From positions 1 through 64,000 of IMG/VR virus record IMGVR_UViG_2630968933_000007: a stretch of 64,000 bases of DNA, one strand, 5' to 3'. The stretch comes from a virus. Its lineage: Duplodnaviria > Heunggongvirae > Uroviricota > Caudoviricetes. Below the pieces are notes generated by a model that did no database searches, had not been told where the DNA came from, and saw only the letters and a program-made list of their open reading frames with translations. Positions 18,510 through 59,300 of the stretch are shown in pieces; within the stretch, counting starts at the first letter, position 1; each line of letters begins with the position of its first letter. Made by a program: the position numbers and the translations under genes.

Positions 18510-18720
18510 TTGTCTGGCCAGCGGGAAGTTTGTTAAAAAAATATGGCATGGTGAATCCCCCTGTGCGGAGGGGCATATCAGCGACAGGTGTTTGGTCACA
18601 CCCCTTATCCTTTCTGGTGCGGGTTCAGGTGCTGATACTGAACTCACCGGGAGGCACCCTGCACCATGCATGAACGGTACATAGCGCTACTCTCCAGCCC
18701 CTCTCCGGAGGGGCTTTCTT
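18510..18720 (+). ncRNA. Candidate small RNA unit 2 (paralogue of unit 1)
   Basis: Same promoter architecture 18510-18538, conserved blocks (tggtgaatccccct, accgggaggcacc), same terminator hairpin 18696-18715. Confidence 0.3.
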
Positions 18721-18957
18721 GTTGGATAAAAAAAAGCCCGCGCCGGGAAGCGCGGGTGGCAAGGAATAAACAACAAAACGTGAAGTGATCAATTTTCAGC
18801 TGGCGAATAATACCTGATAGTAATCACTCTGCGCAACTGTATGGTCTTTTTCGTATTGCGGGCTGTAGTCATCCTCCTGTTTCTGAACCCTTGTCCATGA
18901 CTGACGTCAGCCCGCACCTTATCTTGATTGCATACACTATCCCTGCCGGGAGGAATA

Positions 18958-42171: not shown

Positions 42172-42906
42172 ATGAAACATGCCAGAATTATTTTTGCGTG
42201 CACAACTTTTGTGATGAGTTTTGTAGCAGCCCCTGCCTGTGCAGCACAAGGTGACAGTACAGTTTCTTTCGGATACGCTCATCTTCAGCTCTCTGGACTG
42301 AACAATTTTGTTAAGGATTTAAGTCTTTATAATCTTGATACTTTTAACCGTTTTACAAACAGACACTACTTCAATTCAGGCGAATATGCAGATGCTTCTG
42401 TCCGGGGGCATGATGGCAAAGGCAAATCTCCTCAGGGGATGAGCATCAGGTATCGTTATGAGATAACGGATGAGATTGGTGTTATAACATCTTTTACATG
42501 GGCGCGTTCTATGACTAATGCGCAGGCATTTATTGATATTAACCCAGGAGATGAATCCAGAGAGGTTAAAAATCCGGCAGCTTCAGCGAGAACTGATATC
42601 AGGGCTAATTACTGGAGTCTACTATCCGGTCCTTCGTGGCGGTTTAACGAATACCTCAGTGTGTATGCAATGGCTGGTATGGGGGTTGAAAAAGTCACCA
42701 CTGACTTGAAAATTAACGACAATCTTAATCATGGTGCCGGTAGTTTTTCTGAAAGCAAGAGTACTAAAAAAACAGCACTTGCATGGGCTGCTGGTGCACA
42801 ATTTAACCTGAATGAAAGTGTTGCTATGGATGTCGCGTATGAAAGCTCCGGATCCGGTGACTGGCGCACGAGTGGGGTTATTGTAGGCATTGGCCTGAAA
42901 TTCTGA
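42172..42906 (+). CDS. lom: Lom/Ail/PagC-family outer-membrane protein
   Basis: Signal peptide; C-terminal ...ESSGSGDWRTSGVIVGIGLKF matches Lom; AT-rich upstream. Confidence 0.8.
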   Translation: MKHARIIFACTTFVMSFVAAPACAAQGDSTVSFGYAHLQLSGLNNFVKDLSLYNLDTFNRFTNRHYFNSGEYADASVRGHDGKGKSPQGMSIRYRYEITDEIGVITSFTWARSMTNAQAFIDINPGDESREVKNPAASARTDIRANYWSLLSGPSWRFNEYLSVYAMAGMGVEKVTTDLKINDNLNHGAGSFSESKSTKKTALAWAAGAQFNLNESVAMDVAYESSGSGDWRTSGVIVGIGLKF

Positions 42907-42928: not shown

Positions 42929-42953
42929 AACCCGCTGTGATGGCGGGTTTTTT
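42929..42953 (+). terminator. Intrinsic terminator after lom
   Basis: cccgc...gcggg stem + tttttt. Confidence 0.65.
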
Positions 42954-43136
42954 GTTGCCCGTGCAGGGCAAAAATCGTAGATTATGCGCGGGTGCCTTTC
43001 GGCTGATGGCTGGAAGGTGAACCTGAAGGCCTGATGTGGAAAGGCCCCGAGTCAACTTTAACGTTAACCCGAGGCCCTGACACTTCTTTCCTTGAAAGTA
43101 GAAGGTTAGCGCCTCTCCACTCAGGAGGCAAGCGCT

Positions 43137-43275
43137 ATGTCGCAAAAATCGCTTATCACCGTCACAATTTGCATGACGGTAATCTTCACCATCTGGATGT
43201 TACACGGTTCGCTGTGTGAGTTCCGGCTGAATTTGTGGGGAGCGGAGTTTGCGGCGTTCTTACAGTGTAAGCAGT
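43137..43275 (+). CDS. hok: Hok/Gef-family type I toxin (45 aa), below the ORF-track size cutoff
   Basis: MSQKSLITVTICMTVIFTIWMLHGSLCEFRLNLWGAEFAAFLQCKQ: TM segment then SLCE.R...G.E.AAF pattern; SD aggagg; downstream GAAA-loop hairpin 43282-43303. Confidence 0.7.
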
Positions 43276-43333
43276 AGGAAAACCGCGACGGGGACGAAAG
43301 TCCCCGTCAACTGGTTGCTGAGGTTCAGCCGAT

Positions 43334-43735
43334 ATGGCACCCGTTTCAGGTGAGAGAATGGACGACAAAATTCTCCGGTATATGCAGCGTGTTGTGAGAA
43401 ATTCCCGCAACCCTGAATTTATGAATGAAGTTAAAGACGCCTGCCTTAAAAAGCAGGCGTTTTGCTTTGAAGCGCCGGATGGTTTTCTGGTGCTGCGTTC
43501 TGTGCTCAGTGACGATGGTATCCCTTATGTTCTGGTGTTACTGGGCGTGTGTACGGGGAGTAAGAGTGTTGAGCGTTATCTGCCGGAGGTGAAGACATTA
43601 ACCCGCCTGGCTGGCGGACGCTGGGCCGAATTTCATACGGCAAGACGAGGATTTATCCGGCTGGGAAAACGTCTGGGCTTTGAGCGAATGCCGGATGATG
43701 AGGATGGCTTCATGGTGTTCAGGATAGCAGTCTGA
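43334..43735 (+). CDS. Hypothetical protein
   Basis: 133-aa ORF. Confidence 0.5.
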   Translation: MAPVSGERMDDKILRYMQRVVRNSRNPEFMNEVKDACLKKQAFCFEAPDGFLVLRSVLSDDGIPYVLVLLGVCTGSKSVERYLPEVKTLTRLAGGRWAEFHTARRGFIRLGKRLGFERMPDDEDGFMVFRIAV

Positions 43736-43828: not shown

Positions 43829-44485
43829 ATGGGCGGAAGTAAAGGTGGTGGTGATACCAAAGTAAAACCAACAGCAGCGCAAATAGCACAGGAAGAGGTG
43901 GCCTGGAAAGGGTGGCAGGATTACAAAAATATTCTCCGTCCGGCAGAAGATAACTTCATGAAAAAGGTCGATGACCTTAACAGTGAGCAGCAGTACGAAA
44001 ATATCGCAGGCACAACAAATCTTGGGTATCAGAAACAGTTTGGTGAAGCGCGAAGGGAGCTGGCGGGTAATCTTGCTCAGTCCGGCGTTGACCCATCCAG
44101 TGGTCGTTTTAATGCAGTAATGGATGCAAATCAAAGCGACCAGGTGATCGGGCAGATTGACACGACCACACGGGGGCAGGTATCGCAGGCAGATAAATAT
44201 ATTGCCGGGCTACAGGATGTTGCGGCTCTCGGTTCCGGTCAGAAGGCAGATGCGTTACAGAGTTTTAACTCCCTGGCTGACAGCAGTCTGGCAAAAGCCA
44301 AATCGGACGCACAGGCTGCGTTTACGAAACAGCAGGGGCGAGCCTCTCTTGTTGGCGCTGGTCTGGGTGCGGTTGGTGCATATGCGATGCATAAGGCTGG
44401 CGGTAGCGGAGGAAGTGGCGGTGCTAAAACACCTGGCACCGGCGCTAATGCCATTCAGCATCAGGCTCAGAACTGGAGACTGTGA
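43829..44485 (+). CDS. Hypothetical virion/internal protein
   Basis: 218-aa ORF, Gly-rich C-terminus. Confidence 0.45.
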   Translation: MGGSKGGGDTKVKPTAAQIAQEEVAWKGWQDYKNILRPAEDNFMKKVDDLNSEQQYENIAGTTNLGYQKQFGEARRELAGNLAQSGVDPSSGRFNAVMDANQSDQVIGQIDTTTRGQVSQADKYIAGLQDVAALGSGQKADALQSFNSLADSSLAKAKSDAQAAFTKQQGRASLVGAGLGAVGAYAMHKAGGSGGSGGAKTPGTGANAIQHQAQNWRL

Positions 44486-44934
44486 TTATGGAGTACGGTA
44501 AATACGAAACTCTCGCAAGGGCTGGTTATTCAGGAGCAGCCCGCCCACAGGGTGACTGGCAGACGTCAGCAGCGCTGACACGCCAACAATACGACGACTG
44601 GCGAACCAGATATTTGCCCCGCGTGGCAAGGCTGGCTGACCTTGGCGAGAACAACAGCCTGATGAATGCGCAGCTTGCCCGGGTGGGCGGCCTTGCCACT
44701 TCCAGTCTCCGTACAGCGCAGATGGCGCAGGATAACCAGATGGCACGATATGGCGTTAACCGACCTGATAATCCCAACAGTAATACGCTGGGGTTACGTA
44801 ATGCCCTGGCAATTGCTGGCGCGAAAAATGGTATCCGTGAAGCAGAGCAGGATCGTCAGATGAACATACTGACGGGGGCTTCTGCACCTGCAAGACAGCA
44901 ACTGAGTGTTGGCGGACAACTGGTGTCAGCTTAA
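44482..44934 (+). CDS. Hypothetical virion/internal protein
   Basis: 150-aa ORF, coupled. Confidence 0.45.
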   Translation: MIMEYGKYETLARAGYSGAARPQGDWQTSAALTRQQYDDWRTRYLPRVARLADLGENNSLMNAQLARVGGLATSSLRTAQMAQDNQMARYGVNRPDNPNSNTLGLRNALAIAGAKNGIREAEQDRQMNILTGASAPARQQLSVGGQLVSA

Positions 44935-45205: not shown

Positions 45206-46471
45206 ATGAGCGGATTTGCACAGGGGTTACTTGCCGGATTCAGCACGGTTGACCAGGCAATGACCCGTCGTAAGGAGCTTGGTTTGCGAGAAGCACAGCT
45301 TGCTCAGCAACAGAAAAATAACGAGCGAGATTTTGAGTTTGCGCAGTCGCAGTTTGAACATAATAAAAACGTTGATCAGCGTGACTTTGATTACAAAGCC
45401 AAAGTTGATGACCGTGATTATGCGCTTAAAGAACGTGAATTTAACGCCAACCAGAATTACCGGAATGCGTCGCTGGGTATGGAGCAGCAGCGACTCCGGA
45501 TGCAGAAATACAACCAGCGACGGCTTGAGTATAACGATATGCTGGCGCGCGATCAGCCTGTGATGGCGGCGCTTGGAAAGGCTGTGGATGCTGGCGAGCG
45601 GGATGCAGCAATGCGTCTTTACGGCCAGTTGTCAGAGGGTAATCCGCTGAGGCTGATGGCGAATGATGGCTATGTAGCGAAAGCGGGTCAGGCCGTGAAC
45701 AACCTGCAAAAAATCTTTGATGACAAGCCGGACAGGGCGATCGCTTCACTCAATACCCCGGAAAGTCTTGATGCGCTTTCTGGTGTGTTTGCCCCGGAAC
45801 TGCAACAGCGTATTGGCATGCCCGATTCAACCGGGAAAAAGACGATAAAAGAGGCCAGGATTGGCAGTATCGTACCGGCGCAGCAGGAAGGGTACGTACT
45901 TATTGGCCTTGATCTCACATACAGCGATGGCTCCACCGCGCATAAACCTGTAACAGAATACGGCAGTGCACATCCTGATGATCAAACCGTGCTGGCGGTG
46001 CCTGTTGATAAGGCTGTTGAGCTTGTCAGGGATCGCAGTAAATTCGCGGAAATTTCGAAAAATTTCGGCTATTTCACGCCGAAGCAGCAGGGACTTTCTC
46101 TGGCGAAACTTCAGGAAGGAGCCAGCAGTGTAGCGGCGGAAGCGATCAAGAACGGCGGGAATGCTCAGGCGGCGGTGGATGAGTATTACGCTGCAACTGG
46201 TTCACCGCAACATCAGCAGAAAATTCAGCAGCAAAAAATTCAACAAGGGATTACCAGTTGGGCGGGTGATGATCCGGATAAGCAGGCATTCGCCAGAGAA
46301 GTTGCTTCCCGTCAGCCAGAAATGCTGGAGCCTCAGAATCAGAAATTGCTGGAGAACGGGTATGCGAATTTTCTCCGTATTCAAAAGGCCAGGGGGGAAC
46401 AGGCCAGAGATGATAGTGCGGCCTCTGCATCTGAGTTTATCCGTGGTCTGAAACAGAATTACGCGCAGTAA
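45206..46471 (+). CDS. Hypothetical virion/internal protein
   Basis: 421-aa ORF. Confidence 0.5.
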   Translation: MSGFAQGLLAGFSTVDQAMTRRKELGLREAQLAQQQKNNERDFEFAQSQFEHNKNVDQRDFDYKAKVDDRDYALKEREFNANQNYRNASLGMEQQRLRMQKYNQRRLEYNDMLARDQPVMAALGKAVDAGERDAAMRLYGQLSEGNPLRLMANDGYVAKAGQAVNNLQKIFDDKPDRAIASLNTPESLDALSGVFAPELQQRIGMPDSTGKKTIKEARIGSIVPAQQEGYVLIGLDLTYSDGSTAHKPVTEYGSAHPDDQTVLAVPVDKAVELVRDRSKFAEISKNFGYFTPKQQGLSLAKLQEGASSVAAEAIKNGGNAQAAVDEYYAATGSPQHQQKIQQQKIQQGITSWAGDDPDKQAFAREVASRQPEMLEPQNQKLLENGYANFLRIQKARGEQARDDSAASASEFIRGLKQNYAQ

Positions 46472-46539: not shown

Positions 46540-49500
46540 ATGGCTTATTCCGATGAACAGCGCCCTGAAGCGCAATTTGGCAACCAGAACCGCAACAGCC
46601 TGAACATTCAGCAGCCGGGCGAGACTGACCGCTATGATGCGTTTTTCTCCGATCCCAATCGCTGGAAGGACAACAGCACGTCGTTCAGCCTGGGCGATGT
46701 ATTGCCAACTATGGGGAAAGGTGTCGCCCAGTCCGTCCGGGGGGCAGGGGAAATGGCCCGTGGACTCGGTGATGCGATGATTCAGAGCCCGGTAAAAACA
46801 GGGGCGCGTATTTTAAATGAGTTCAGCCGTATGGGGCTGCCGGGAGTCGCAACTGTTCAGGATATTTTTGTCGGTGGCAGCAAGGGGGCGGATGAGGTCA
46901 TCGACACTCTGCCTGATGGAAAAAATGCGGTTACTGATATTGTCGGTAAAGGTCTGAAGGTCACAGGCAAGGCAGTCAGTGGCGGCGCTAAAGCCTCGGA
47001 TGAATGGCTGACTGGCAAGATGTCGCCGGGGGCGCTGCGGGCGCTGAATACACCGATGACTGAAGGATATGATGATTCTGCGGTCTGGGTGGCGAAGGGC
47101 GTAAACCTGATTGGTGCCCTTGTACCTGATATGGTTGCAGGCGGTGTGACTAAAAAGCTGGGTGAAGTCACTCTGCGAAAAATGCTGACCGCCGGGCTGG
47201 AGAAAAAATACATTGCGGCAGGGATGCAGCCGGAAAGAGCTACCGCACTGGCAGCAGAAGCTGTCGATAAAAAAATGCCGGATTTATTCCAGGCAGGCCT
47301 GATCACCCATTCCTCAGCCAGCGCACAGGGGCAGAGTGCAATGGCAGCAGCAGACTCTGTTCTTAACGCGGATTACTCTGAGCTGGCGAAGTCCCCGAAA
47401 TTTCAGCAGATGTTTTTGTCAATTGATGCAGATCCGCAGCACGCACAGCTTACTGATCGCCAGAAAATGGATCTGGCAAAAGAGCGTGTTGCCGATGAGG
47501 TGCGCGCGCAGCTGGCAACAGATCCTGAATTGCTGGCTGTGAATGCCATGGCGGCAAAACTGGGCGATGCTCAGTTGCTTAATCTGGCGATGCGGGGCAC
47601 GGCGAAGACCGTTAAAAGCGGCATTGTCAGAAATGCCACGGAACAGGGGACGATTAATGCGGCGCAGGGTGGCTATTCACGCTATCAGGAAAACACGGCA
47701 TTGCGTGAGACTGCCGGAATGGATGTATCACCATGGGAGGGGGTAGCTGACGCAACGATCGAAGGAGCCGCTCTTGGTGCAGCGATGGGCGCACCGTTCG
47801 GTGCGGTTGCCGGATATCGTGGAAAACGTCAGGCCGCAGAAGAAACCGCCATGCGTGAGGCTGAAGTCGTACAGCAGGGTGAAGCAGCCCCGCAACCCGA
47901 ACCGGCTGATCCGGTGGCACAGCATCGCGAATCCATGCAGGGCATGAATCGCGAGCAACTTCTGGAACAGTATGCTGATGCGGATATGGCACATGAGGGA
48001 GACACGTCTGCCGTTCATCGCCGGGAAGCCGCCAGCCAGCTGTTGAATGAACTGGATGAACAGGCGAAGCGACAGGCGGTAATGGATGAGCTGAAGGCGA
48101 AGCCGCGCCCTGAACTGCTTGAGGAATACCGAAAACTCAGCCTGAAGGAAGGGCGTACTGATACTGAAGAGCAGCAGTTACAGGCTATCCGTGATGTGCT
48201 TCGCCCTCAGCAGGAGGCCAGACCGGAGGCACAGCCACAGCCGGAAAATGCGGATGATGGCGACGGGAGTATTTACCCGACGGTGCGGTTCCGCGATCCG
48301 GATGAAGTTCGTATTGAAATTAACGGGAGTGGTGCGTCCAGACCAGCAGAACGCATTGAAAAGGTGCGTCCGGACAACCGTTATTTCACGGATGAAAAAA
48401 GTGCTCTGGGGAGCGACGTTTTCCGCAATGCCAGCGCCACCGGCCTGAAACCGTCCGTAGTAAAGAAAGGCGAGAATCAGTATGCCGTTGAAATGGATAA
48501 TCCTGCGTTCTCTGAAGATGTGGCAACGGAGACCATTAACACCCTGGCTGACGGAGAGCGTATTGCTGATGCTGAACCGATGGAGCAGCCCGCGTTCATG
48601 CGTGACCCGCGATTCCGTGGTTTCACGGGGGATGATACAGAAGTGCAGGCCCGCCTTGCCCGTGGCAACGCGCCGACGGCAGAGGAGCTTGTACGTTCAC
48701 AGATGGCTGAAGGTGATGCCGGTCCGACAGCACAGGAGTTAACTGAGCGTCCACGCCTTCCCGCTCCCGGTGATATTCATCCCGGACAGGGATATCCGTT
48801 ACCAGGAGAAGTGGCGCGTACGCCGGATGAAAATCAGGCCGGACGTGGTGGTCGTTTTACCACAACCGGTGAGGTGAAGGGCCAGAGTTTCCAGAAAGGA
48901 CGTGCGCAGGCACCGGAAAATGCCGCTGGTCGCCGGGGGGAAATACTGGAGGGCGAACCGGTTCGTCGTGGTCTGCCGTCACCGGATGAGCAGAACGCCA
49001 CAGCACCAGTGCGTGAAGGACTTCCTGCACCTGAAAGTCAGCGTGGGGTTGATATGCCACAGCCTGAATCACTCCCTCGTATGGTTCGTGACTCCCTTCC
49101 GGAACTGGCACAGCAGGCAGAAGCACGCAGACAGACCGGGGATAATCGCCAGACCATAACCGATGTTCCGGATACTGAGGTGCCGATGCCGGTAGATAAA
49201 CCGAGCACTCACCAGCAGGCGCGTGGTGCGAAAATTGAAGACTTTGGTGAAGAAATTAAGGGCGCGGCAAAACACCGTTATGCACAGCTTGCCGAAACAC
49301 TGGGTAAAACGCTGGAAGACAGGGATTATTTCACGCAGCCGCTGAGCAAAGTGTTCCCGAAACCGGACTATGCAAAACTGGCGAACGAAGGGGCCGACGC
49401 TGACACACTGGCAATGATAGCGCTGTATCGTAGCGATATTCCGGCGAAGACGAAACACAATACGGCTGGCTGGGGGGAGAGCGTAAAAAAAGTACGACAC

Positions 49501-52500
49501 AGTGTATCGGAAATGCTGAACGGAACGGTCAGCGCGAAACGCCTCGCAGAATGGATGGAAGGCAGAATGCCCTCCCGTTACGCGGATACCTGGCAACTGT
49601 TACGCACTCTGCCACCCTCACAGATGGACAAGGCTTCTGCTTATCGGGTGGTATCGGGTGTGTATCAGGCGGCAGGAGGGAAGCGTTACGATCCGCCACA
49701 GAAACTTTATTCACTGCGCAATAAGGACAATAAGGGGACTAACCTCTTTTTCTCGGAAAGCAGGGATGAATTACTGACAAAGGCGAAAGTCTGGTTTGCA
49801 GAGCTGGAGGAAAAGTCACAGGCGAAAGGAGATGAAAAAACGGCACCGTCACCGGATGACAAAATCAGCTTTGACGTTTACCGGAATACCCGTAGTGGCG
49901 ATATTTTTATCGCTTACGGCAAAAACAAAATGCGGGTGAGAGGTGGTTTTAAGTCAGCCAGTGATGCGCGTAAGTACATTGATTCACATCGTGATGAGCT
50001 TGTTCGTCATGTGAAGGAGATGCGGGAGATTTCGCGTGAGGAGCAGCGTAACGCCACCAACCGCGATCGTACCGGACCAGAACGCCGCAAGGGGGATGTT
50101 TCGCCGGAGCAGTTCAGTGATGCGTTTGGTTTTCGTGGTGTGCAGTTTGGTAATTATGTGGAAGGTCCGCGTCGTCAGGCTGATTTGAACCGGGCTTATG
50201 ACTCGCTGCATGACCTGGCTGATGTGCTGAACGTGCCGACAAAAGCGCTTTCTCTGAACGGTCGTCTTGGGCTTGCTTTTGGTGCCCGTGGTAAGGGTAA
50301 GGCGGCGGCACACTATGAGCCGGGTGAGGTGGCAATCAACCTGACAAAAGGTAACGGACCGGGTGCGCTGGCCCACGAATGGTTCCATTCACTGGATAAT
50401 TATTTTGGTCGTTATGATGTTTCCACTGACGGGAAGATCACGTCAGGTGGCGACTATATGACGGAAGCACAGCGTGCCGGGCGCGTATTTAAAGACGGCA
50501 GATATGTTGATGCGGAATATCCGGTACGTCAGGAGGTTTACGACGCGTTTAAAGGCGTGATGAAAGCGATCAACAGCAGTGACATGCCGCGTCGTTCAGC
50601 GCTTCTCGATGAGGTGCGCTCAAAACCGTACTGGTCAACGGATGTTGAAATGGCGGCGCGTGCCTTTGAGCGTTATGTTCAGGATAAAGCGCGTACGGCT
50701 GGCGTGGAGAATGATTATCTGGTCAATATCCGTAAGGCACCTGAGCACAACACAGATAACACCTGGGCTTATCCGACGAATGCGGAACTGGATGGCGGTA
50801 TTCGTGATGCATTCGATCACCTGTTCAGTACGCTGAAAACCCGTAAGACGGACAAGGGCGTTGCGTTTTATTCCCGTAAGGGCGTGACCCGCACACCTGA
50901 AGGCAATCTCATTTCGGATGTTAACCGCAGTGCGGAAGCCAAAGGCAGCCCGGTCCCGCAGGTTGAAGCGGTTGCCCGTGGCGTGATGAGTGGCATTAAG
51001 GACAGTGACCTGAAGGTCCGCGTGGTGAAGTCACAGAAAGAGGCTGAAGCACTGGCGGGTGAATCATTCGACGGTTACGGCAAGGTGCACGCGTTCTATC
51101 GTCCGGATAAACGTGAAATTGTCCTGGTGGCGGATAACATCCCTGACGGGCGGACCGTACGCGAGAAGTTGCGTCACGAGATTATCCACCATGCCATGGA
51201 GCATGTTGTCACGCCAGCGGAATATCAGACGATCATCAAAACCGTGCTGAAAACCCGCGACAGTGATAACGCCACCATCCGTGAAGCCTGGCGTAAGGTT
51301 GATGCGTCCTATGGTAAGGAATCACCGGAAGTGCAGGCGGGTGAATTTCTGGCACATATGGCGGAGAAACAGCCGAATAAATTCGTGGCGGCATGGGAGC
51401 GTGTTGTTGCCCTGGTCAAAGGGGTACTGCGTCGCACGGGGTTACTGAAGCCGACAGAACTGAACGATATCAGACTTGTTCGCGAGACCATCCGTACGTT
51501 AGGCCAGCGTGTGCGGGAAGGTTACACGCCGCGTGAGGATGGCGCTGGCGCATCGTCTCAGTACTCCCGTAGCGGTAAGCCTGATCCGTTCAAAGTGCCG
51601 GAAGGTGAGGGCGAGCGTTATCGTGATGACCTTGCCAGAATGATGAAGTCGTTACGTTCTGGTGCAATGACTGCAAACATCGGGCGTACGCCGCCGGTAT
51701 TGCGCCACCTTGGCGCACCAGATTTGCCGCTGGTTATCTCCCGCGACACTGTGCGGAAGGCTACCAATGGCGTGAAACATGTGGTGCCAATGGATGTTAT
51801 CGAGAGACTTCCGGAACTGATGCACGATCCGGATGCAATTTACCGTTCCGCGACAGAAAGAAATGCGGTTGTGATGCTGCTTGATGCCATGGATAAAAAT
51901 GGTGATCCGGTCGTCTCGGCAGTGCATATGAAGGCGACAGATAAACGTCTGGAAATTAACAAGGTGGCATCTGTTTACGGTACGGAAAACGGGAAAAAGC
52001 TGAAAAGTATGGAAATGGCTGGATTAACGCTTTACCGGAAGGAGAAATTAAGCCGCGATAACCCTCAGTACAGTGGGCTCCAATTGCCCAAAGAGGAGCG
52101 TTCTTATCGCGGCTCTGTAGATAAAATACTCTATCCTGAAGATATTCGCAAGGGGCCGTATTACTCCCGTACCAGCAGTCTGACACCGGAAGAGACAATT
52201 GCATCGCGTTTTGTGCGCCAGATGCAGGATAAATTCCAGGTGCTGAAAGCTGTTCAGGAGAATATCCGTAAAACTGGCGGAAAAATAGACGACAGTAACA
52301 ACGCTTATATGGCGGAAGAACTCTTCCACGGGAAGGCGGAAAACGACCTGAACGTGATGAAGGAGCGCTACGTTCAGCCACTGGCTAAATTACTGGCGGA
52401 CTACAAAATTGCGCAGGCCGATCTGGATGAGTACCTCTACGCCCGTCACGCGCCGGAACGTAACGCGCATATTGCGAAAATCAACCCGAAAATGCCGGAC

Positions 52501-54906
52501 GGCGGTTCGGGGATGACCAACGCGGAAGCGGCGGAAATCATGCAGCGTGTGCGTAACAGTGGCAAACAGGCACAGTATGACCGTCTGGCAGGGATTGTTG
52601 ACGATATGCTGGCCCGTCGCCGTGAGCTTATCCGTGAGGCCGGACTGGAAGAGAGCGGTGTGGTGGATGCCTGGCAGAACGCCTACCGTTACTACGTTCC
52701 CCTGAAAGGTCAGGATGTTGACGGTGTGGTGTCACTGCCCCGTACAGGTAAGGGCTTCACCATCGGCGGACGTGAAAGCAGGCAGGCCATGGGGCGTGCA
52801 TCCCGCGCACAGTCTCCTTCCACTCAGGCGATACAGGATTTGAGCGAATCGCTGATCCGCCATCGCAAAAACGAAGTGGGTAACGCCTTCCTGAAACTGG
52901 TGCAGGATAATCCCGATAAGGATTACTGGCAGGTATTCACTGATGACAAACCGGACACCATGCGGGCGATTGCAGAGCGTGTTGATCCGGAAACCGGCGA
53001 AACCCGTCGCGAAGTTGTTGAACGTCCGGTGCCTATGGCAATGATGGCGGATCGCTACTTCACCACCAAAAAGGACGGCAAAACTTACTACATTAAACTT
53101 CATGATCCGCGCCTGATGCGTGCGATGAAGAACATGGGGCCGGAAACCAGTAACGCCGTAATCCGTACGCTGGGGAAAGTTAACCGTTTCCTGGCAACGG
53201 TGAACACGTCGTATAACCCGGAATTTCTGGTCAGTAACTTCATCCGTGACGTGCAGACGGCGGTGATGAACCTGAAGGCGGAGCAGGGAAGGAGCGACGG
53301 TAAACTGAAAGGGCTGGATAACTTATCCGCCCTGGCTGTAGTCAAAGACAGCCGTTCTGCAATGTCAGCCGTGTACGCCAGTCTGCGTGGCAAAACCCTC
53401 ACGGGCAAAGGCGCACAGTGGCAGAAAGTGTGGAAAGAGTTTGTTGAGGACGGAGGTAAAACCGGCTGGTTTAACATGGGTGACCTTGAAGGCCAGAAGA
53501 AGGAAATGGATCGCCTTGTATCGCTGGCGAAGGGAGGATGGAAAGGCCAGAGTATCGGTGCATGGCATTCGTTCCTGAACCTGGTCGAGGATGCCAACGG
53601 CGCGGTTGAAAACGCTCTGCGTCTTTCTGCCTATAAACACGCCCGTGATGCCGGTTTGTCACGCCAGCAGGCGGCATCTCTTGCCAAAAACATGACGGTG
53701 AACTTTAACCGTCGTGGTGAGCAGGGAGCGCTGATGAACTCGCTGTATATGTTTGCCAACGCCAGCATTCAGGGGACCGCAAACCTGGTGAGAACGCTCG
53801 GACATCTTAATGGCGACGGGCCGTTACCGGAGCGCCTTCGCTGGAAGAATCTCAATGTACCGCAGAAAATCGCGCTTGCAGCTGTGGGAGCGGGTTATCT
53901 GCTTGGCTCGCTTAACCGCAGTGTTGCGGGGGAGGATGATGACGGGGTTAACTGGTACGACAAGGTGCCGTATCATGTGAAAGAGCGTAACCTCGTCATT
54001 ATGAAATCGATGTTCGGGGGCAGGGCCGGAGAGTACTGGAGTATTCCTCTGCCTTACGGGTACAACGTTTTCTTCCTGCTCGGGCATACCTCTGAAGGTG
54101 TGGCTGCTGGTGACCTGACGGCGTCCCGTGCTGCCGGTAATGTTGTCGGTGGTATCCTGGGGGCATTCAGCCCGATTGGCAGTGAGACGTCGGAAACGCT
54201 GTCCGGGGCATTGCTGAAAAATGCAGCACCGACAATTCTGCGTCCGTTTGCGAATCTTGCCATGAACGAAAACTTCATGGGGGCGCAGATTTACCAGGAG
54301 AACATGCCGTTTGGTACACCAAAACCTGACAGCCAGCTGGGAAGACGTTCAACGCCAGAAGCGTACAAGGCGTTTGCATCCTGGCTGAATGCGTTCTCAG
54401 GTGGCAGCCAGTATCGTCCCGGCGCGGTGGATATCACACCGGAATCGCTGAAATTCTGGATTGACTATATCTCCGGAGGGACAGGGCGCTTCATTTCCAA
54501 AACCACAGATGCGGCGGTGAAATCGCTGAACGGTATTGATATACCGGAGCAGCAGGTGCCCTTCCTGGGGAAAATTTCGGGTGAGGTGATGCCGTATGCA
54601 GACCAGCAGAAGATGTACGACCGGATGACAGAGGTTGCGCAGTATCACGCAGAGCTGAAGAGTCTGACCGGTGCAGAAAGAACGGCGTTCATTGACGAGA
54701 ACAACGGAAAATTGTTGATGAACGGGCTTATGCAGGATACCCGGAAGAGACTGAAGGATTTGCGCAAACAGCGCGATGCCATTTATGCCGACAGTTCTCT
54801 CAGTCTGGCGCAGCAGGCGGCGATGGTGAAATCGGTAGAGCGGGATATGAAGGTTGCCGTGGATCGCTTTAACCGCGAGTACAACAAAAAAGTGGGAGTG
54901 GATTAA
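46540..54906 (+). CDS. Giant 2788-aa protein (putative virion-associated/ejection protein) with HExxH motif
   Basis: Single uninterrupted ORF; HEWFH at residues 1279-1283 (nt 50374-50388); terminator 46513-46537 upstream. Confidence 0.7.
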   Translation: MAYSDEQRPEAQFGNQNRNSLNIQQPGETDRYDAFFSDPNRWKDNSTSFSLGDVLPTMGKGVAQSVRGAGEMARGLGDAMIQSPVKTGARILNEFSRMGLPGVATVQDIFVGGSKGADEVIDTLPDGKNAVTDIVGKGLKVTGKAVSGGAKASDEWLTGKMSPGALRALNTPMTEGYDDSAVWVAKGVNLIGALVPDMVAGGVTKKLGEVTLRKMLTAGLEKKYIAAGMQPERATALAAEAVDKKMPDLFQAGLITHSSASAQGQSAMAAADSVLNADYSELAKSPKFQQMFLSIDADPQHAQLTDRQKMDLAKERVADEVRAQLATDPELLAVNAMAAKLGDAQLLNLAMRGTAKTVKSGIVRNATEQGTINAAQGGYSRYQENTALRETAGMDVSPWEGVADATIEGAALGAAMGAPFGAVAGYRGKRQAAEETAMREAEVVQQGEAAPQPEPADPVAQHRESMQGMNREQLLEQYADADMAHEGDTSAVHRREAASQLLNELDEQAKRQAVMDELKAKPRPELLEEYRKLSLKEGRTDTEEQQLQAIRDVLRPQQEARPEAQPQPENADDGDGSIYPTVRFRDPDEVRIEINGSGASRPAERIEKVRPDNRYFTDEKSALGSDVFRNASATGLKPSVVKKGENQYAVEMDNPAFSEDVATETINTLADGERIADAEPMEQPAFMRDPRFRGFTGDDTEVQARLARGNAPTAEELVRSQMAEGDAGPTAQELTERPRLPAPGDIHPGQGYPLPGEVARTPDENQAGRGGRFTTTGEVKGQSFQKGRAQAPENAAGRRGEILEGEPVRRGLPSPDEQNATAPVREGLPAPESQRGVDMPQPESLPRMVRDSLPELAQQAEARRQTGDNRQTITDVPDTEVPMPVDKPSTHQQARGAKIEDFGEEIKGAAKHRYAQLAETLGKTLEDRDYFTQPLSKVFPKPDYAKLANEGADADTLAMIALYRSDIPAKTKHNTAGWGESVKKVRHSVSEMLNGTVSAKRLAEWMEGRMPSRYADTWQLLRTLPPSQMDKASAYRVVSGVYQAAGGKRYDPPQKLYSLRNKDNKGTNLFFSESRDELLTKAKVWFAELEEKSQAKGDEKTAPSPDDKISFDVYRNTRSGDIFIAYGKNKMRVRGGFKSASDARKYIDSHRDELVRHVKEMREISREEQRNATNRDRTGPERRKGDVSPEQFSDAFGFRGVQFGNYVEGPRRQADLNRAYDSLHDLADVLNVPTKALSLNGRLGLAFGARGKGKAAAHYEPGEVAINLTKGNGPGALAHEWFHSLDNYFGRYDVSTDGKITSGGDYMTEAQRAGRVFKDGRYVDAEYPVRQEVYDAFKGVMKAINSSDMPRRSALLDEVRSKPYWSTDVEMAARAFERYVQDKARTAGVENDYLVNIRKAPEHNTDNTWAYPTNAELDGGIRDAFDHLFSTLKTRKTDKGVAFYSRKGVTRTPEGNLISDVNRSAEAKGSPVPQVEAVARGVMSGIKDSDLKVRVVKSQKEAEALAGESFDGYGKVHAFYRPDKREIVLVADNIPDGRTVREKLRHEIIHHAMEHVVTPAEYQTIIKTVLKTRDSDNATIREAWRKVDASYGKESPEVQAGEFLAHMAEKQPNKFVAAWERVVALVKGVLRRTGLLKPTELNDIRLVRETIRTLGQRVREGYTPREDGAGASSQYSRSGKPDPFKVPEGEGERYRDDLARMMKSLRSGAMTANIGRTPPVLRHLGAPDLPLVISRDTVRKATNGVKHVVPMDVIERLPELMHDPDAIYRSATERNAVVMLLDAMDKNGDPVVSAVHMKATDKRLEINKVASVYGTENGKKLKSMEMAGLTLYRKEKLSRDNPQYSGLQLPKEERSYRGSVDKILYPEDIRKGPYYSRTSSLTPEETIASRFVRQMQDKFQVLKAVQENIRKTGGKIDDSNNAYMAEELFHGKAENDLNVMKERYVQPLAKLLADYKIAQADLDEYLYARHAPERNAHIAKINPKMPDGGSGMTNAEAAEIMQRVRNSGKQAQYDRLAGIVDDMLARRRELIREAGLEESGVVDAWQNAYRYYVPLKGQDVDGVVSLPRTGKGFTIGGRESRQAMGRASRAQSPSTQAIQDLSESLIRHRKNEVGNAFLKLVQDNPDKDYWQVFTDDKPDTMRAIAERVDPETGETRREVVERPVPMAMMADRYFTTKKDGKTYYIKLHDPRLMRAMKNMGPETSNAVIRTLGKVNRFLATVNTSYNPEFLVSNFIRDVQTAVMNLKAEQGRSDGKLKGLDNLSALAVVKDSRSAMSAVYASLRGKTLTGKGAQWQKVWKEFVEDGGKTGWFNMGDLEGQKKEMDRLVSLAKGGWKGQSIGAWHSFLNLVEDANGAVENALRLSAYKHARDAGLSRQQAASLAKNMTVNFNRRGEQGALMNSLYMFANASIQGTANLVRTLGHLNGDGPLPERLRWKNLNVPQKIALAAVGAGYLLGSLNRSVAGEDDDGVNWYDKVPYHVKERNLVIMKSMFGGRAGEYWSIPLPYGYNVFFLLGHTSEGVAAGDLTASRAAGNVVGGILGAFSPIGSETSETLSGALLKNAAPTILRPFANLAMNENFMGAQIYQENMPFGTPKPDSQLGRRSTPEAYKAFASWLNAFSGGSQYRPGAVDITPESLKFWIDYISGGTGRFISKTTDAAVKSLNGIDIPEQQVPFLGKISGEVMPYADQQKMYDRMTEVAQYHAELKSLTGAERTAFIDENNGKLLMNGLMQDTRKRLKDLRKQRDAIYADSSLSLAQQAAMVKSVERDMKVAVDRFNREYNKKVGVD

Positions 54907-55056: not shown

Positions 55057-55581
55057 ATGGCAGCGTATTTGCTGAAAAAACATGGCGGATCTATGCGTTT
55101 CATTAAGCTGATGTATCTCTCTGACCGCAAAGCAATGGAGTTGTATGGTTTTCCCATTAGTGGTGATCATTATTTCTCTATGAACAAAGGACCCGTTTTA
55201 TCGCAGACATATTCTTTGGTTAAGGATGGAAGTGAAAACGAGTACAGTCCGTGGGAATCATGGATATCTGATGTAGCGGATCATAAGGTTGAAATGTGGC
55301 GTACATTTTCTTCTGTTGATGAGCTGGGGGAGTTATCGCCCGCAGAAATAGAGTCAATGGACATAATTTTTGGTCAATATGGAGGTTGGGATGCGTTCAG
55401 GCTTTGTGATGAAACTCACAGAATTTGCGGTGAGTGGCGCGATCCGCATGGTTCATCAATTCCAATCAGCCTTAAGGATATATTTATTGCTCTTGGAAAG
55501 TCGCCAGAAGCAGCAACAGTAATGGCGAATAGCATTTATGCGCAAAATAATCTTGATATATTATTAAGTGATCTGAGGTAG
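55057..55581 (+). CDS. Panacea-domain (DUF4065, SocA-like) protein
   Basis: 174-aa ORF ...FIKLMYLSDRKAMELYGFPISGDHYFSMNKGPV... pattern; in-frame MFNEEKVA-stop directly upstream. Confidence 0.55.
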   Translation: MAAYLLKKHGGSMRFIKLMYLSDRKAMELYGFPISGDHYFSMNKGPVLSQTYSLVKDGSENEYSPWESWISDVADHKVEMWRTFSSVDELGELSPAEIESMDIIFGQYGGWDAFRLCDETHRICGEWRDPHGSSIPISLKDIFIALGKSPEAATVMANSIYAQNNLDILLSDLR

Positions 55582-55669
55582 TCGGGATGATGTTCAGCCC
55601 TTATTTGTATTTACCGGGGAGGGAAGATGTTTAATTCCGATTCCCCGGCTCCACAGGCCTAACCTAACT

Positions 55670-56314
55670 TTATGTAACAGTCCATGCAGGGCTGAAATCT
55701 GCCTGCTGAAATAACTCCGTTAGCCCGCTAATCTGCTTTAACCTCAGAACTTCATCCTGGTCCATCCCCAGTTCTGTTCCGATACGTTCATCAGTCCAGC
55801 CAAGACGTGAAAGATCTCTGACAATATCAGACATTGAGGTTATCTGGTGTTTCCCCCTGGCTCTGTTATGTCGGATAGTCGCGGCAATACGTGAGGTTTG
55901 TCCCTTTCGGTCTGGATTAATACAGGTTACTGGTAGCCAGCCTTTCAGGCGTTTTCCAGTAACTGTTCTTCTACCTAGTAACTGCCTATGAAAACCATCC
56001 ACCACCAGGTAATGGCTTGTTTCTTCCGAAACAACAATTGGTTGAGTAAAACCGTCTTTTTCCAGAGATTGTTTCAGTAATTTTTTTTCGCTTGGGGCCA
56101 TGACATTGGGATTATAATCGTTAGCGACAATTTCATCCGCTTTTACCCACAGCACACAGTCCACTGGTTCTTGAGCAAAGGGGCTGATCTCATGGAGTAC
56201 GCAGCGGAGATGGTTCAGGGCCTGTATGGTTTTCTCTTCAGATTGTTCCTGACTGAAGTACTGTCGAATCATCTTGCTCAGCACCTCCACCTCTGGTGTC
56301 ACAGAATTCCCCAT
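55670..56314 (-). CDS. ibrB: IbrB-like ParB/Srx-type nuclease-domain protein
   Basis: 214-aa ORF with ParB-like motif region ...QPIVVSEETSHYLVVDGFHRQ...; overlaps ibrA-like gene by 16 bp. Confidence 0.65.
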   Translation of the reverse strand: MGNSVTPEVEVLSKMIRQYFSQEQSEEKTIQALNHLRCVLHEISPFAQEPVDCVLWVKADEIVANDYNPNVMAPSEKKLLKQSLEKDGFTQPIVVSEETSHYLVVDGFHRQLLGRRTVTGKRLKGWLPVTCINPDRKGQTSRIAATIRHNRARGKHQITSMSDIVRDLSRLGWTDERIGTELGMDQDEVLRLKQISGLTELFQQADFSPAWTVT

Positions 56315-57525
56315 TCCTTCCTCCTTTCATTCATACGCTGCAGGTAACGTTCATAGTGCCGGGGTTTGTTGGGGCTGAAGGAGAGCGTTCGGCACCAGAA
56401 ATCATTCTTTATGAGAGTCTTACAAATACGTCGCCAGGAGGGAACATCCCGGCAGCCCAGATCATTTTCCTGTTCATCCGGGATATCATCCGGGAATCCC
56501 CGGTTCTGATACCAGCGCAGGTAAACTGCTATCTTGTTGCGGTAGTGTTCAGCCGTTCTTTCCGGCATTACGTCCAGCAGGAAGAACGCATAGCTGCGCC
56601 AGGTATGATGGGATGGTTTTGACATCCGTTTACGCAGGGCAAAATAGGCCCCGCTTTCATTGGCATAAAGAGCCCCACTGGCAGCACCAGATACTCGTTC
56701 ACACATCCGTGCCCAAGTTTCTGGCTCCAGAACATGATAAAGCCATAGTCCCTTACGCTGTTCCGGGCCAAAAGGCTCACAGACACGCATATTACGTAGA
56801 GGAATGCCTGCGCGGTACATCAAATCATACAGAGGATTGTAGATTGCACAGGTTTTAGCGTTATATACCCAGATATCGTTGGTTTTCCAGTCATACAGCG
56901 GATACATGGTGTAGTAAAAACCTTCAGGTGACGCCGTGGTCCAGGGTTTATCATCTGCATATCTCAGTTTTCGTTGGGAAACCAGTCCCATAAATCTGTT
57001 AAGAGATTCATCCGCGCGGACTCCAGTCAGTATTGCCACGCTACATTGGTTACTTGCGAACCAGGAAGAAAAAGCCGGGACAAATTCTTCAAAAGTCATG
57101 GCGTAGCGGTAAAAGGGGAAATACGCCATATCAGTAATAGCATCTTCCGGTGGCTGTCGAACCCACTCTACACCGGGCTCCCAGCATATCCACTCAGGCT
57201 GAAACTGCGAGACACCATTTACTGTCGTCAGGGGAAGTGCAACCCAGTAAAAGGTATCTGTTACATCTTGGTACATCATCCGCATCTTCTGTATATGATC
57301 AATGGTGCATTGATACTGGGCTTCCCAGTCAATGAACAATACAGAAAAACGACGTTTCTTCCTGTAGGCCACTTCGGCTACAAGATGGAAAAGTACAGTG
57401 GAATCTTTACCGCCAGAAAAAGATAAACATACAGAAGAGAATGTTTCAAACAACCATTCAATGCGGTGAATGGCTGCTGACAAAACATCTTCTCCAGTTC
57501 TGATTTTTGTTATAGTTACCGGCAT
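56299..57525 (-). CDS. ibrA: IbrA-like PAPS-reductase-family (PP-loop ATP pyrophosphatase-like) protein
   Basis: 408-aa ORF with PP-loop-like SFSGGKDS motif near N-terminus. Confidence 0.65.
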   Translation of the reverse strand: MPVTITKIRTGEDVLSAAIHRIEWLFETFSSVCLSFSGGKDSTVLFHLVAEVAYRKKRRFSVLFIDWEAQYQCTIDHIQKMRMMYQDVTDTFYWVALPLTTVNGVSQFQPEWICWEPGVEWVRQPPEDAITDMAYFPFYRYAMTFEEFVPAFSSWFASNQCSVAILTGVRADESLNRFMGLVSQRKLRYADDKPWTTASPEGFYYTMYPLYDWKTNDIWVYNAKTCAIYNPLYDLMYRAGIPLRNMRVCEPFGPEQRKGLWLYHVLEPETWARMCERVSGAASGALYANESGAYFALRKRMSKPSHHTWRSYAFFLLDVMPERTAEHYRNKIAVYLRWYQNRGFPDDIPDEQENDLGCRDVPSWRRICKTLIKNDFWCRTLSFSPNKPRHYERYLQRMNERRKEWGIL

Positions 57526-57693
57526 ACAATCTGATAAAAATAGCGAGGGTTTGCATTTTACCTAGTAACGTTATGTAACTATTTTTTTGAATAAAGGCAA
57601 TGAGATAATGATAAAAAATGTTTATCTAATGTACTGAGCTCTTCTCTTTATTGTATTAACTCTTCGATTTCAGCGGCGTTGTCGTTCAGGTAT

Positions 57694-57714
57694 AAAAAAA
57701 GGAGCCGAAGCTCC
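57694..57714 (-). terminator. Intrinsic terminator after ant (same hairpin as 15143-15162, inverted)
   Basis: ggagc-ttcg-gctcc + T7 on minus strand. Confidence 0.65.
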
Positions 57715-57721
57715 TTTGGTA

Positions 57722-58351
57722 TCAGAATTCAAATTGTCTTGCCCGCAGGCTTTTCAGCATTGGTCTGGCCCGCTGAACTACGAAACTCGACTGGTCAAGC
57801 CGTGCCGCCTCTCTCAGTAGCACATCTCTGTTCTTCGTCACCATGTAGATAGTCTCAAACGCAATGTCATACAGCTTGTTCGTGTATGAGGAGTTCAGCT
57901 CTTTCATTATGGGGTACAGCTGCTTGCTAAGGTCCTGGGCTTTTTCCATCCAGAGCTGCATGTAGCAAAGGAGGATGATTTCCTCGGCTGTGAATTGCGG
58001 CTGTGGTTCTGCTTGTACTGGCTGAATGTTGCGAAGTTTCTTTTCGCACTCGATGAAGTAGCGGCGGATCTGGCGACCTTTTTCGTTACGTTCAACCATC
58101 GCAAGCTCTTTGGCTGTGTCGAGGGTGAGGTGGTAATCCTTGCGGCGGCGGCCTGGAGTTTTCGCCAAATTTGGCGAAAATAGAATGTAGTCTAAATTTT
58201 CTACGAATCCATACTCGTTTAGCCTGGCCCGTATCCAGTTAGAAAAATCTTTACCTACCTCTAAAAATCCATGCAAATCACGCGCGTTCACCAGAAGCGT
58301 AGGTTCATTTGAGATTGTACCTTCAAACACAGGGATGAGTTGAGTGGTCAT
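57722..58351 (-). CDS. Antirepressor, AntA-like N-terminal domain + C-terminal domain shared with 14464..15135
   Basis: Start MTTQLIPVFEGT with SD aggagg; ...DFSNWIRARLNEYGFVENLDYILF... AntA-like. Confidence 0.7.
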   Translation of the reverse strand: MTTQLIPVFEGTISNEPTLLVNARDLHGFLEVGKDFSNWIRARLNEYGFVENLDYILFSPNLAKTPGRRRKDYHLTLDTAKELAMVERNEKGRQIRRYFIECEKKLRNIQPVQAEPQPQFTAEEIILLCYMQLWMEKAQDLSKQLYPIMKELNSSYTNKLYDIAFETIYMVTKNRDVLLREAARLDQSSFVVQRARPMLKSLRARQFEF

Positions 58352-58600
58352 GATGACCTCCTTTGGCTTTTTTCGAGAAATGCCACCACAAGATGTGGTG
58401 CCGGGAGGCTCGAAACGGCCCAAAAGATACCGCGGACTTATTCCCCTTGCGGGTGTTGTATTCGTCGCCCTCCCGACATTGATCGGGGATGTGACCGCAC
58501 ACTGTGCTATCACTGAATAACAGGCATAAAAAATCCAACACTGACGGGGTTGGTTTAATCCGCTTTTGGGAGGTTTTCGAGGCCTCGGCGCGGAGTATAG

Positions 58601-58885
58601 TCAGTATTGGACGCAGTCGTCAACCATCGCAAGCTCTTTGGCTGTGTCGAGGGTGAGGTGGTATTCCTTGCGGTTGTGACCGCCTCTACCTTTTGCTTCC
58701 CGAATTTGGGAAGCAATCATATAGTCCTGATTTTCAACGAAACCATATTCAGCAATACGTTCTGTTATCCACGATGCAAAGCGTTTACCAACCCCAAGGA
58801 AAGCGTGTAGATTGCGAGCATTGCATAGAAGGGCTGCTTGGTTTGAGATAGAACCGTTGAATACGGGGATGAGTTGACTGGTCAT
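58601..58885 (-). pseudogene. Truncated second AntA-like copy (N-terminal 94 codons only)
   Basis: MTSQLIPVFNGSIS... with identical SD; homologous to 58086-58351 but ends prematurely. Confidence 0.5.
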
Positions 58886-59300
58886 GATGACCTCCTTATT
58901 TGTTTAGTTTATAACCGCCAGTTAGTAGCTGGCGGTCGGGTGTCAACTGAGCCAAATAAGAAGCTCTGGGCATATTCCCCTTGCGGGTGTTGTATTACGC
59001 CTCTCCACCCGACCTTTGTACGGATGTAACTATGCCAAATTGCAGGCATAAAAAAGCCGCAAAGCTATCGGGTGCGGAGACCGCTTATTTGTTCAGTGCG
59101 ATCAGTATGCGATAGCTCTGGCGGATTTGTCAAATCGTGCAGTAACATCCTTTTCTTCCTTGCCATTTCTCAATGATGACAAAGGGTGGATTCGGATTGG
59201 TATTGGGACAAAAGTGAGACACACAAAGCTTTGCATCGGCTTACAAAGCTTTGCATGTTTTTCAATGTTGGGACGTGTGAGCGCAGAAATGACGGGCTAT

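Follow-up and report, generated by a model that had tools for sequence, protein, structure and literature searches.

A probable hok/sok-type toxin–antitoxin cassette beside lom in a 933W-like prophage

Layout of the lom-adjacent locus

A 933W-like (Sepvirinae) prophage harbours, between lom and its distal virion genes, a unit of ~390 bp that very probably constitutes a complete type I toxin–antitoxin (TA) cassette of the hok/sok type, carried as a moron. The prophage is contained in IMG/VR virus record IMGVR_UViG_2630968933_000007, of which positions 1 to 64,000 (hereafter the window) were analysed, and the locus had been singled out in an earlier note, made from the letters alone, as a hok/gef-family toxin locus between lom and the downstream virion genes. 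That location is borne out, the cassette (~42955–43342) extending from the lom terminator to the next virion gene. The lom gene itself occupies 42172–42906 (Pfam Ail_Lom, E=2.6e-33), and its terminator hairpin AACCCGCTGTGATGGCGGGTT, followed by a T-run (42929–42953, + strand), was found by a terminator scan and forms the left boundary, with the cassette starting directly after it.

Transcription of the toxin would begin at a predicted promoter on the + strand (42955–42983), composed of a −35 box TTGCCC (42955–60), a 17-nt spacer and a −10 box TAGATT (42978–83), which places the predicted +1 of the hok transcript at the G at 42990. This promoter is inferred from invariance, as its TTGCC and TAnAnT positions do not vary in cassettes from four genomic contexts. 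The core of the full-length hok mRNA, as delimited by its minimum free energy (MFE) fold, would comprise the 353 nt from the 5' end of the tac element to the 3' fbi element (42990–43342, + strand), the true 3' end probably lying a few nt past 43342. Between these two elements follow a ucb hairpin, a dcb-like box, the hok Shine–Dalgarno sequence (SD), the coding sequence (CDS) of hok and a 3' stem-loop, and a predicted Sok-like antisense gene occupies the opposite strand of the leader.

The Hok peptide and its family

The hok CDS (43137–43277, + strand; PF01848, PHROG 251) runs intact from an ATG at 43137 through 46 sense codons to a TAG at 43275–43277, and encodes MSQKSLITVTICMTVIFTIWMLHGSLCEFRLNLWGAEFAAFLQCKQ. 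The open reading frame (ORF) with a Hok-like peptide that the earlier note had placed here is therefore real, its length of 45 codons being a miscount, since 46 are counted and the peptide quoted with it is itself 46 aa long. The strong SD described with it is also found, as AGGAGG at 43123–43128 (+ strand), 8 nt before the ATG. With its 46 aa the peptide falls within the ~45–55 aa, and shows the N-terminal hydrophobic helix, that characterize Hok/Gef proteins.

Assignment to the Hok/Gef family, suggested earlier from the residue pattern and left for an alignment to decide, is upheld by profile searches. The peptide matches Pfam HOK_GEF (PF01848) over profile positions 6–42 of 42 with 33.2 bits (E=4e-08; gathering cutoff 22), and PHROG 251 (‘MokW-like host killing’, moron category) over its full length with 85.8 bits (E=2.8e-24). 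It also matches the NCBIfam HokA equivalog model NF007290 with 38.4 bits (E=9e-10), a score that does not reach the equivalog cutoff of 89. Seven residues are conserved in >80% of the 1264 peptides of a Hok logo (M1, C16, T18, L30, C31, E32 and E41), and all seven are kept in the window peptide, as M1, C12, T14, L26, C27, E28 and E37. A tblastn search with nine Hok proteins found no second Hok ORF in the 64-kb window, and PADLOC returned no match.

Conservation was assessed on 75 cassette cores comprising 46 distinct variants, to which all counts of variants given here refer. The hok ORF is uninterrupted in every one of them (with 45 codons in one), and the dN/dS of the CDS is 0.10–0.67 among variants; judged from these sequences the peptide is under purifying selection, including in variants that lack the mok-like frame discussed below. 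It could be supposed that the ORF is a chance product of a structured 3' untranslated region (UTR) of lom, or part of an intergenic regulatory RNA, so that no toxin gene exists at all, and its mere 46 codons and the high degree of structure on both strands of the region would suit this explanation. However, the three profile matches, the full set of Hok signature residues and the purifying selection all speak against it, as does the occurrence of the cassette without lom, in P2-like and other contexts, and the chance-ORF explanation is effectively refuted.

The toxicity on expression that the earlier note anticipated is also reported for this very peptide. Identical in sequence to entry 72_1589 of the high-abundance Hok cluster 72 (Escalera-Maurer et al. 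2026, bioRxiv 10.1101/2025.08.07.668861), it was put into plasmid LRP157 and is one of the 45 homologs that the preprint subjected to an arabinose-induction toxicity assay. By the preprint’s account 42 of the 45 were toxic, and the three it names as non-toxic are 19_179, 60_1482 and 69_1540, so that 72_1589 is not among these.

Predicted folding of the hok mRNA

A 361-nt RNA beginning at 42990 folds with an MFE of −155.2 kcal/mol (z=−5.5 against dinucleotide shuffles) and is closed end to end by pairing of tac with fbi. This closure consists of two helices of 7 and 8 bp, in which GGGUGCC (42990–96) pairs with GGCACCC (43336–42), and UCGGCUGA (42999–43006) with UCAGCCGA (43325–32). The tac element accordingly spans 42990–43006 and fbi, which forms the right end of the cassette, 43325–43342, both on the + strand. 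When the full-length structure was imposed on the 46 variants, 91.7% of 5363 cells held standard pairs, against 37–45% when the partners were slid by 1–3 columns, and 15 pairs were altered on both sides, a number matched by none of 500 shuffles. The most conserved segment is tac, with a mean pairwise identity of 98.5%; its first helix with fbi is paired in 99.4% of cases and the second in 88.7%, with G-C/G-U changes on the 3' side. Partition functions for the variants gave a mean probability of tac–fbi pairing of 0.99 in the full-length RNAs.

A different conformation is predicted once the 3' tail is removed up to the hairpin at 43287–43308. In the MFE structure of this truncated RNA tac pairs with 43036–43048, within ucb, and GAGGC-CUGAC-CUUCU (43071–87) pairs with AGAAG-GUUAG-GCCUC (43100–15), the dcb-like box AGAAGGUUAGCGCCUC (43100–43115, + strand). 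Across the variants the probability of tac–ucb pairing rises from 0.00 in full-length RNA to 0.62 in truncated RNA, and the RNAalifold consensus of the 46 variants adopts the truncated form, with the dcb helix (84–96/119–130) paired in 45–46 of them. The ucb hairpin, also the predicted Sok target (43036–43077, + strand), is formed by GGCCCCG (43043–49) and CGAGGCC (43070–76), and its core pairs (helix 5) are kept in 45–46 of the 46 variants. The 3' part of the dcb box runs into the anti-SD CCUCUCC, and it is this CCUCU(CC) that sequesters the hok SD within a local hairpin (43107–43136). The probability that the SD is unpaired in the window RNA is 0.01 at full length and 0.09 after truncation, with family means of 0.01 and 0.10.

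The stem-loop at which trimming would halt, GACGGGGAC-GAAA-GUCCCCGUC (43287–43308, + strand; the terminator scan shows the same stem on the minus strand, 43309–43286), is paired in 100% of cases in the 46 variants (helix 15). It contains four compensatory pairs, for example one that is A-U in 26 and G-C in 19 variants, and another that is A-U in 21, C-G in 19 and G-C in 5. A GAAA hairpin written GACGGGGAC-GAAA-GTCCCCGTC had been noticed earlier after the hok stop codon and placed at 43282–43303, 5 nt to the left of where it actually lies; its interpretation as the structured 3' end of a hok mRNA agrees with these compensatory changes and with the protective stem-loop of processed hok mRNA. The element is likely to form the 3' end that protects processed (active) hok mRNA, by analogy with plasmid R1, in which the roles of tac/fbi, ucb, the mok SD and the 3' stem-loop are described (PMC9841398). 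The Rfam model RF01794 (sok/hok leader) aligns in full (positions 1–157) to 42990–43148 on the + strand, with E=9.1e-06 and 35.6 bits, below the gathering threshold of 59, and by this comparison the leader is homologous to RF01794 but divergent. In the alignment the GAGG at 43071–74, within CGAGGCC, corresponds to the mok SD of R1, and no start codon comes after it.

A predicted Sok-like antisense gene

The minus strand of the leader, which the earlier note had marked for a search, indeed carries a predicted sok promoter (43103–43131), with a −35 box TTGCCT (43131→43126), a 17-nt spacer and a −10 box TAACCT (43108→43103). Hexamers and spacing (TTGCCT-N17-TAACCT) are exactly those of the sokW promoter of phage 933W, in which a −10 mutation abolished antitoxin activity (Takada 2021, PMC8621323). 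TAACCT and the TTG of the −35 box are invariant in the 46 variants. The case for both promoters of the cassette lies in their invariance and, for sok, in identity with sokW.

From this promoter a Sok-like antisense RNA of ~58 nt would be transcribed, with predicted ends at 43039–43096 (minus strand). Its predicted fold (−31.4 kcal/mol, z=−6.2) starts with 18 single-stranded nt as a 5' tail, continues as a GC-rich hairpin of 16 bp and closes with the tail CCUUUC. The same succession of tail, hairpin and U-tail is predicted for all 30 distinct versions in the family, whose stems are compensated in clade-specific ways and whose 5' tails vary. The target of the predicted Sok tail (43079–43097) is the least conserved segment of the cassette, with a mean pairwise identity of 70% and a minimum of 35%, as would be expected if the tail determines antisense specificity. 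Genomes with up to 9 cassette copies exist, and the variable Sok tail may insulate co-resident copies from one another’s antitoxins.

The question of a Mok leader

The ~150 nt upstream of hok contain a predicted Sok-like gene together with tac, ucb and dcb elements, largely as the earlier note had expected of a region holding mok and sok. A mok-like ORF is present as well in the window, yet as a conserved component Mok falls away, a frame crossing the hok start being found in 16 of the 46 variants. The window’s mok-like ORF (43034–43219, + strand, 61 codons) overlaps the hok start and is offset from the hok frame by −1, as is mok of R1. One might consequently read the locus as a canonical three-gene hok/mok/sok system, in which this ORF is a genuine Mok whose translation is required to open the hok SD as in R1. 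Its frame, its course across both SD and start of hok, the GAAGG that stands 4 nt upstream of its ATG, and the recurrence of the same ATG −103 configuration in six other variants fit this reading, and sequestration of the hok SD in both predicted conformers is the very situation in which R1 needs Mok.

The comparative record points elsewhere. Conservation of the frame was examined in 4, then 10, then 46 variants, and the 16 in which it exists (with ATG, GTG and TTG allowed as starts) use three different ones, ATG −103 in 7, ATG −130 in 6 and TTG −46 in 3, leaving 30 without such a frame; indels of 1–2 nt shift the frame freely. A 1-bp indel breaks the ATG-initiated mok-like frame in the otherwise 99.8% identical copy of E. 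coli G1/2, and in the lambdoid copy L010 the conserved ATG is directly followed by TGA. No ORF crosses the hok start in 933W or Lyz12581Vzw, and the mok-like ORF has no Pfam, NCBIfam or PHROG match. Furthermore, the active conformer has the mok-like ATG within its tac–ucb stem, no start comes after the GAGG that corresponds to the mok SD, and Hok is under purifying selection in variants devoid of the frame. A genuine Mok is for these reasons rather unlikely. On the sequence evidence Mok is not a conserved component, and the window’s mok-like ORF is probably fortuitous; the conserved GAUGUGG is better explained by tac pairing and by a Sok terminator on the other strand.

Because the Mok leader required in R1 is not conserved here, translation of hok is probably not Mok-coupled, and a conserved hok/sok switch without a conserved Mok frame is a small departure from the R1 paradigm. 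A Mok-independent switch operated by 3' truncation alone was also considered; its direction is consistent in 46 of 46 variants and its effect on SD accessibility is small (0.01 to 0.10), and it was kept as a possibility only.

Distribution and mobility

A unit of ~373 bp with 75–100% identity to the cassette occurs in 1750 of 5426 complete E. coli genomes, about a third, and a 441-bp query around the ORF found matches in 198 phage records and in 1553–1750 of the same 5426 genomes. Every 933W-like (Shiga-toxin-type) prophage contains the cassette, which is fixed across about 185 Sepvirinae records, and 325 IMG/VR stretches encode a relative. A protein-based scan with one genome per species recovered Salmonella only, plus two assemblies labelled as Firmicutes, a Planococcaceae metagenome-assembled genome (UBA3378, L012) and Vagococcus sp. 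WN89Y (L014). The cassettes of these two are typical of E. coli/Salmonella P2-like prophages and are most likely enterobacterial contamination. As a result, covariation data from across genera are thin.

The boundaries of the unit are sharply drawn. Distant copies (75–83% identity) are always aligned by blastn over positions 11–383 of a query covering 42960–43345, that is, window positions 42970–43342, and the same span is found in phages P88, P884B11 and 520873. Across contexts, homology starts at the −35 box (ATTGCC) and ends directly after GGCACCC. Four such contexts were distinguished, namely between lom and the homolog of 933W gene L0129 in Sepvirinae (L001, L002, L004, L005), behind ogr, where P2-like prophages end (L006–L009), in a lambdoid prophage with tail-tip genes on one side and tail-fibre genes on the other (L010), and in an island remnant (L011). 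Read together, these sequence comparisons indicate that the unit is a mobile, self-contained moron cassette. The copy of E. coli SJ3 (L005) and the 933W type (L004/L018) have almost identical UTRs, a hok CDS diverged at dS ~1.2–1.5 and peptides that are 54% identical, a mosaic that suggests recombination swapping the toxin-coding core between conserved regulatory arms.

Relation to annotated and named systems

The locus is already known, being named in RefSeq and PHROG and its peptide catalogued with a toxicity assay. RefSeq protein WP_000078907.1 (‘Hok/Gef family protein’), encoded in the 99.8%-identical prophage of E. coli G1/2, is identical to the window peptide, and among phages the gene is labelled ‘MokW-like host killing’ in Lyz12581Vzw and ‘prophage host toxic membrane protein’ in ORF72 of the O104:H4 phage P13374. 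Cluster 72 with its entry 72_1589, WP_000078907.1, PHROG 251 and P13374 ORF72 share the identical 46-aa peptide and the same lom-adjacent position in Sepvirinae; all of these sources cover the CDS only, and the catalogue says expressly that Mok, Sok and mRNA structure lay outside its analysis, features that are described here for the cassette. In other records the ORF is unannotated. This is the case for 933W (AF125520), in a 430-bp gap between lom and L0129 (locus at ~45430–45857), for VT2-Sakai/Sp5 (AP000363, L096), in a gap at 44468–44898 with the identical ORF at 44701, and for many Stx2a phages of the LC series (LC6454xx/LC6160xx). The searched literature contained no functional study of the lom-adjacent locus in its native context.

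The resemblance to hok/mok/sok of R1 extends through the whole predicted architecture. Shared with R1 are closure by tac/fbi, the hairpin of ucb and the mok-SD homolog, a dcb box, sequestration of the hok SD and a protective 3' stem-loop with a removable tail of ~35–40 nt behind it; a predicted antisense RNA of ~60 nt, combining a single-stranded 5' tail with a single long hairpin, would likewise come from a promoter inside the leader. In contrast, the window peptide is only 34% identical to its R1 counterpart over 32 aa (46 vs 52 aa), the cassette is borne by a prophage rather than a plasmid, no conserved mok is present, and the RF01794 match stays below threshold. Among named Hok proteins HokA of E. 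coli K-12 is the closest, with 45% identity over 40 aa and a shared pattern W-M-x-x-x-S-L-C-E ... E-x-A-A-F-L-x-C-K, although the window peptide is 4 aa shorter, lies in another genomic context and does not qualify as a HokA equivalog.

A second comparison concerns hokW-sokW of 933W and Sakai prophage 5 (Sp5), the only phage-borne hok/sok with a demonstrated role, where induction leads to the loss of Sok, and lysis and release are accelerated by Hok (Takada et al. 2021, PMC8621323). Like the window cassette, it is a type I module in a Shiga toxin (Stx) phage of the Sepvirinae, with an identical sok promoter and a similar mRNA 5' end (GGGTGC...). It is another locus, of another subfamily, and differs in encoding a 51-aa Gef/HokD-like protein that is 36% identical to the window peptide, in having an annotated mokW, and in lying near attR on the opposite strand (58460–58734 in 933W), whereas the window-type locus of that phage is at ~45430–45857. 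The ‘MokW-like’ labels invite the assumption that the locus is hokW-sokW itself; this was ruled out, the primers and leader of Takada 2021 being unmatched and the 933W map different. A search for a 25-mer of the hokW leader, allowing up to 3 mismatches, matched nothing in the window; the window prophage carries only the lom-adjacent locus, whereas 933W and Sp5 carry two hok loci. The second, lom-adjacent one is not mentioned by Takada et al. (PMC8621323).

Prophage context

To the right of the cassette lies the homolog of 933W L0129 (PHROG 610; 43358–43735, + strand). Its true start is probably ATG 43358 and not the ATG 43334 inside fbi from which RefSeq annotates it, to judge from the match of PHROG 610 positions 1–124 to residues 9–133 of the ORF that starts at 43334. 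The first 9 nt of that longer ORF belong to the mobile cassette, and the 8 codons at its beginning are apparently an artefact of annotation that the cassette brought about; with the later start the gene does not overlap it. Terminator-like hairpins on both strands (GCCTGC..GCAGGC with a T-rich run, 43437–43476) lie within the L0129-like CDS, ~100 nt past the cassette, and might terminate hok transcripts that read through.

The window has no tRNA genes, and stx was not noticed at the position usual for Stx phages, no direct stx search having been made; the prophage looks stx-negative. In the early region isrK (68.9 bits) adjoins a C4 antisense RNA (67.5 bits) at 14221–14410, a c4-ant immunity arrangement of the P1/P7 type. 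Two tandem copies of the small RNA STnc100 (18048–18241 and 18517–18726; 138.7 and 129.9 bits) lie ahead of a nanS-p-like sialate O-acetylesterase gene (18928–20931). Where 933W has hokW-sokW, after an L0134-like ORF of 2788 aa (46540–54906), the window holds other genes (55057–58513). These are an antitoxin-like ORF with a SocA/Panacea domain (55057–55581), an unassigned 214-aa ORF on the minus strand (55670–56314), a PAPS-reductase/DUF3440 protein (56299–57525) and an AntA antirepressor (57722–58513), and the region may be another TA or defence module. Two sRNA-Xcc1 matches on the minus strand (58392–58477 and 58926–59014; 73.4 and 69.1 bits) precede host genes for ynfE/ynfF-like molybdopterin oxidoreductases (59425–63990), and the prophage–host junction is probably near 59.1–59.4 kb.

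Proposed mechanism and role

The peptide’s membership in the Hok family, the extent to which the RNA elements are conserved and covary, and a predicted switch between full-length and truncated RNA were computed here, and they carry the interpretation of the locus as a hok/sok-type cassette. Several points weigh against it. The Sok gene, both promoters, the Sok ends and 3' processing are predictions; the hok and sok promoters agree with consensus at 8 and 7 of 12 bases, respectively, and neither was reported by a simple promoter scan. The conservation of AGGTTAGCGCCTC could equally come from the role of dcb in the mRNA. The leader scores below the Rfam threshold, and as tac, fbi and ucb are nearly invariant, their pairing is backed by conservation and by G-C/G-U changes compatible with it, compensatory substitutions playing no part. 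The gain in accessibility of the hok SD upon truncation, seen in every variant, is small and leaves the SD mostly paired, and licensing of hok translation without a conserved Mok has no explanation in the model. After fbi the window contains no clear intrinsic terminator, only a weak version of one, and the evidence for toxicity is an overexpression assay in a preprint. In the related cassettes L007 and L010, fbi is followed by a hairpin with a U-rich stretch behind it that is plausible as a terminal structure.

Some of these features would also suit a silenced or decaying relic, comparable with the chromosomal hok loci of K-12 inactivated by insertion sequences or mutation, which is passively carried and never expressed. 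Such a relic could well lack a conserved Mok and an evident terminator, keep its hok SD largely paired and have two promoters weak by consensus, and 933W and Sp5 already hold a functional hokW-sokW elsewhere. Decay is nonetheless hard to reconcile with regulatory elements that are intact and more conserved than synonymous sites of the CDS (98.5% for tac vs dS >1), with the intact ORF of all 46 variants at a dN/dS <1, and with a 3' hairpin and Sok stem that keep their pairing via compensatory changes. The cassette has moreover spread to at least four mobile-element contexts and become fixed in the Sepvirinae, and its peptide is toxic by the preprint’s report. The relic is thus an improbable explanation, and the preferred reading remains that of a complete hok/sok-type cassette.

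For such a cassette a mechanism can be proposed by homology with hok/sok of R1, in which transcript ends, Sok expression, processing and role are all inferred. The constitutive promoter would yield a hok mRNA of ~355 nt that is inert and stable, with tac and fbi closed upon one another and the SD buried by CCUCUCC. Slow 3' trimming to the GACGGGGAC hairpin would remove fbi and allow tac to pair with ucb (43036–48); the freed GAGGCCCUGAC segment would then pair with the dcb box, loosening the hok SD hairpin and exposing the Sok target. As long as the short-lived ~58-nt Sok is made, it would bind this target via its single-stranded 5' tail and block or destroy the processed mRNA. Once its synthesis stops, the 46-aa Hok would be made, insert into the inner membrane and depolarise the cell. 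Possible triggers for such a stop are prophage loss, host shut-off, and convergent late transcription across the cassette after induction.

The last of these is suggested by the orientation of the locus. The late operon (terminase, portal ... lom, + strand) points the same way as the cassette, so that Q-antiterminated late transcription should continue across it and run against the sok promoter; this would agree with a part in lysis after induction like that of hokW. By analogy with hokW-sokW, the role of the cassette is most likely help in late lysis or prophage addiction, phage exclusion being another possible function.

Even though the toxin is catalogued, key Stx phage records (933W, VT2-Sakai and the LC series) leave it unannotated, and the anatomy of its regulatory RNA, given here with coordinates, was not attempted in the catalogue paper. 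Since Sp5 carries the lom-adjacent cassette, the deletion work on hokW-sokW in that prophage was done with a second hok/sok still present. A wider proposal, advanced here tentatively and as a whole somewhat doubtful, would combine these elements: the cluster-72 cassette may be naturally Mok-independent, with the former mok SD (GAGG, 43071–74) turned into a switch element that, once the 3' end is trimmed, pairs with the dcb/anti-SD box and itself loosens the hok SD; its hypervariable Sok tails of 18–20 nt may provide co-resident copies with mutually orthogonal antidotes; and the second, lom-adjacent locus, present in every Stx phage of the 933W/Sp5 type and oriented like late transcription, could add to the residual induction-dependent lysis of Sp5 deleted for hokW-sokW.

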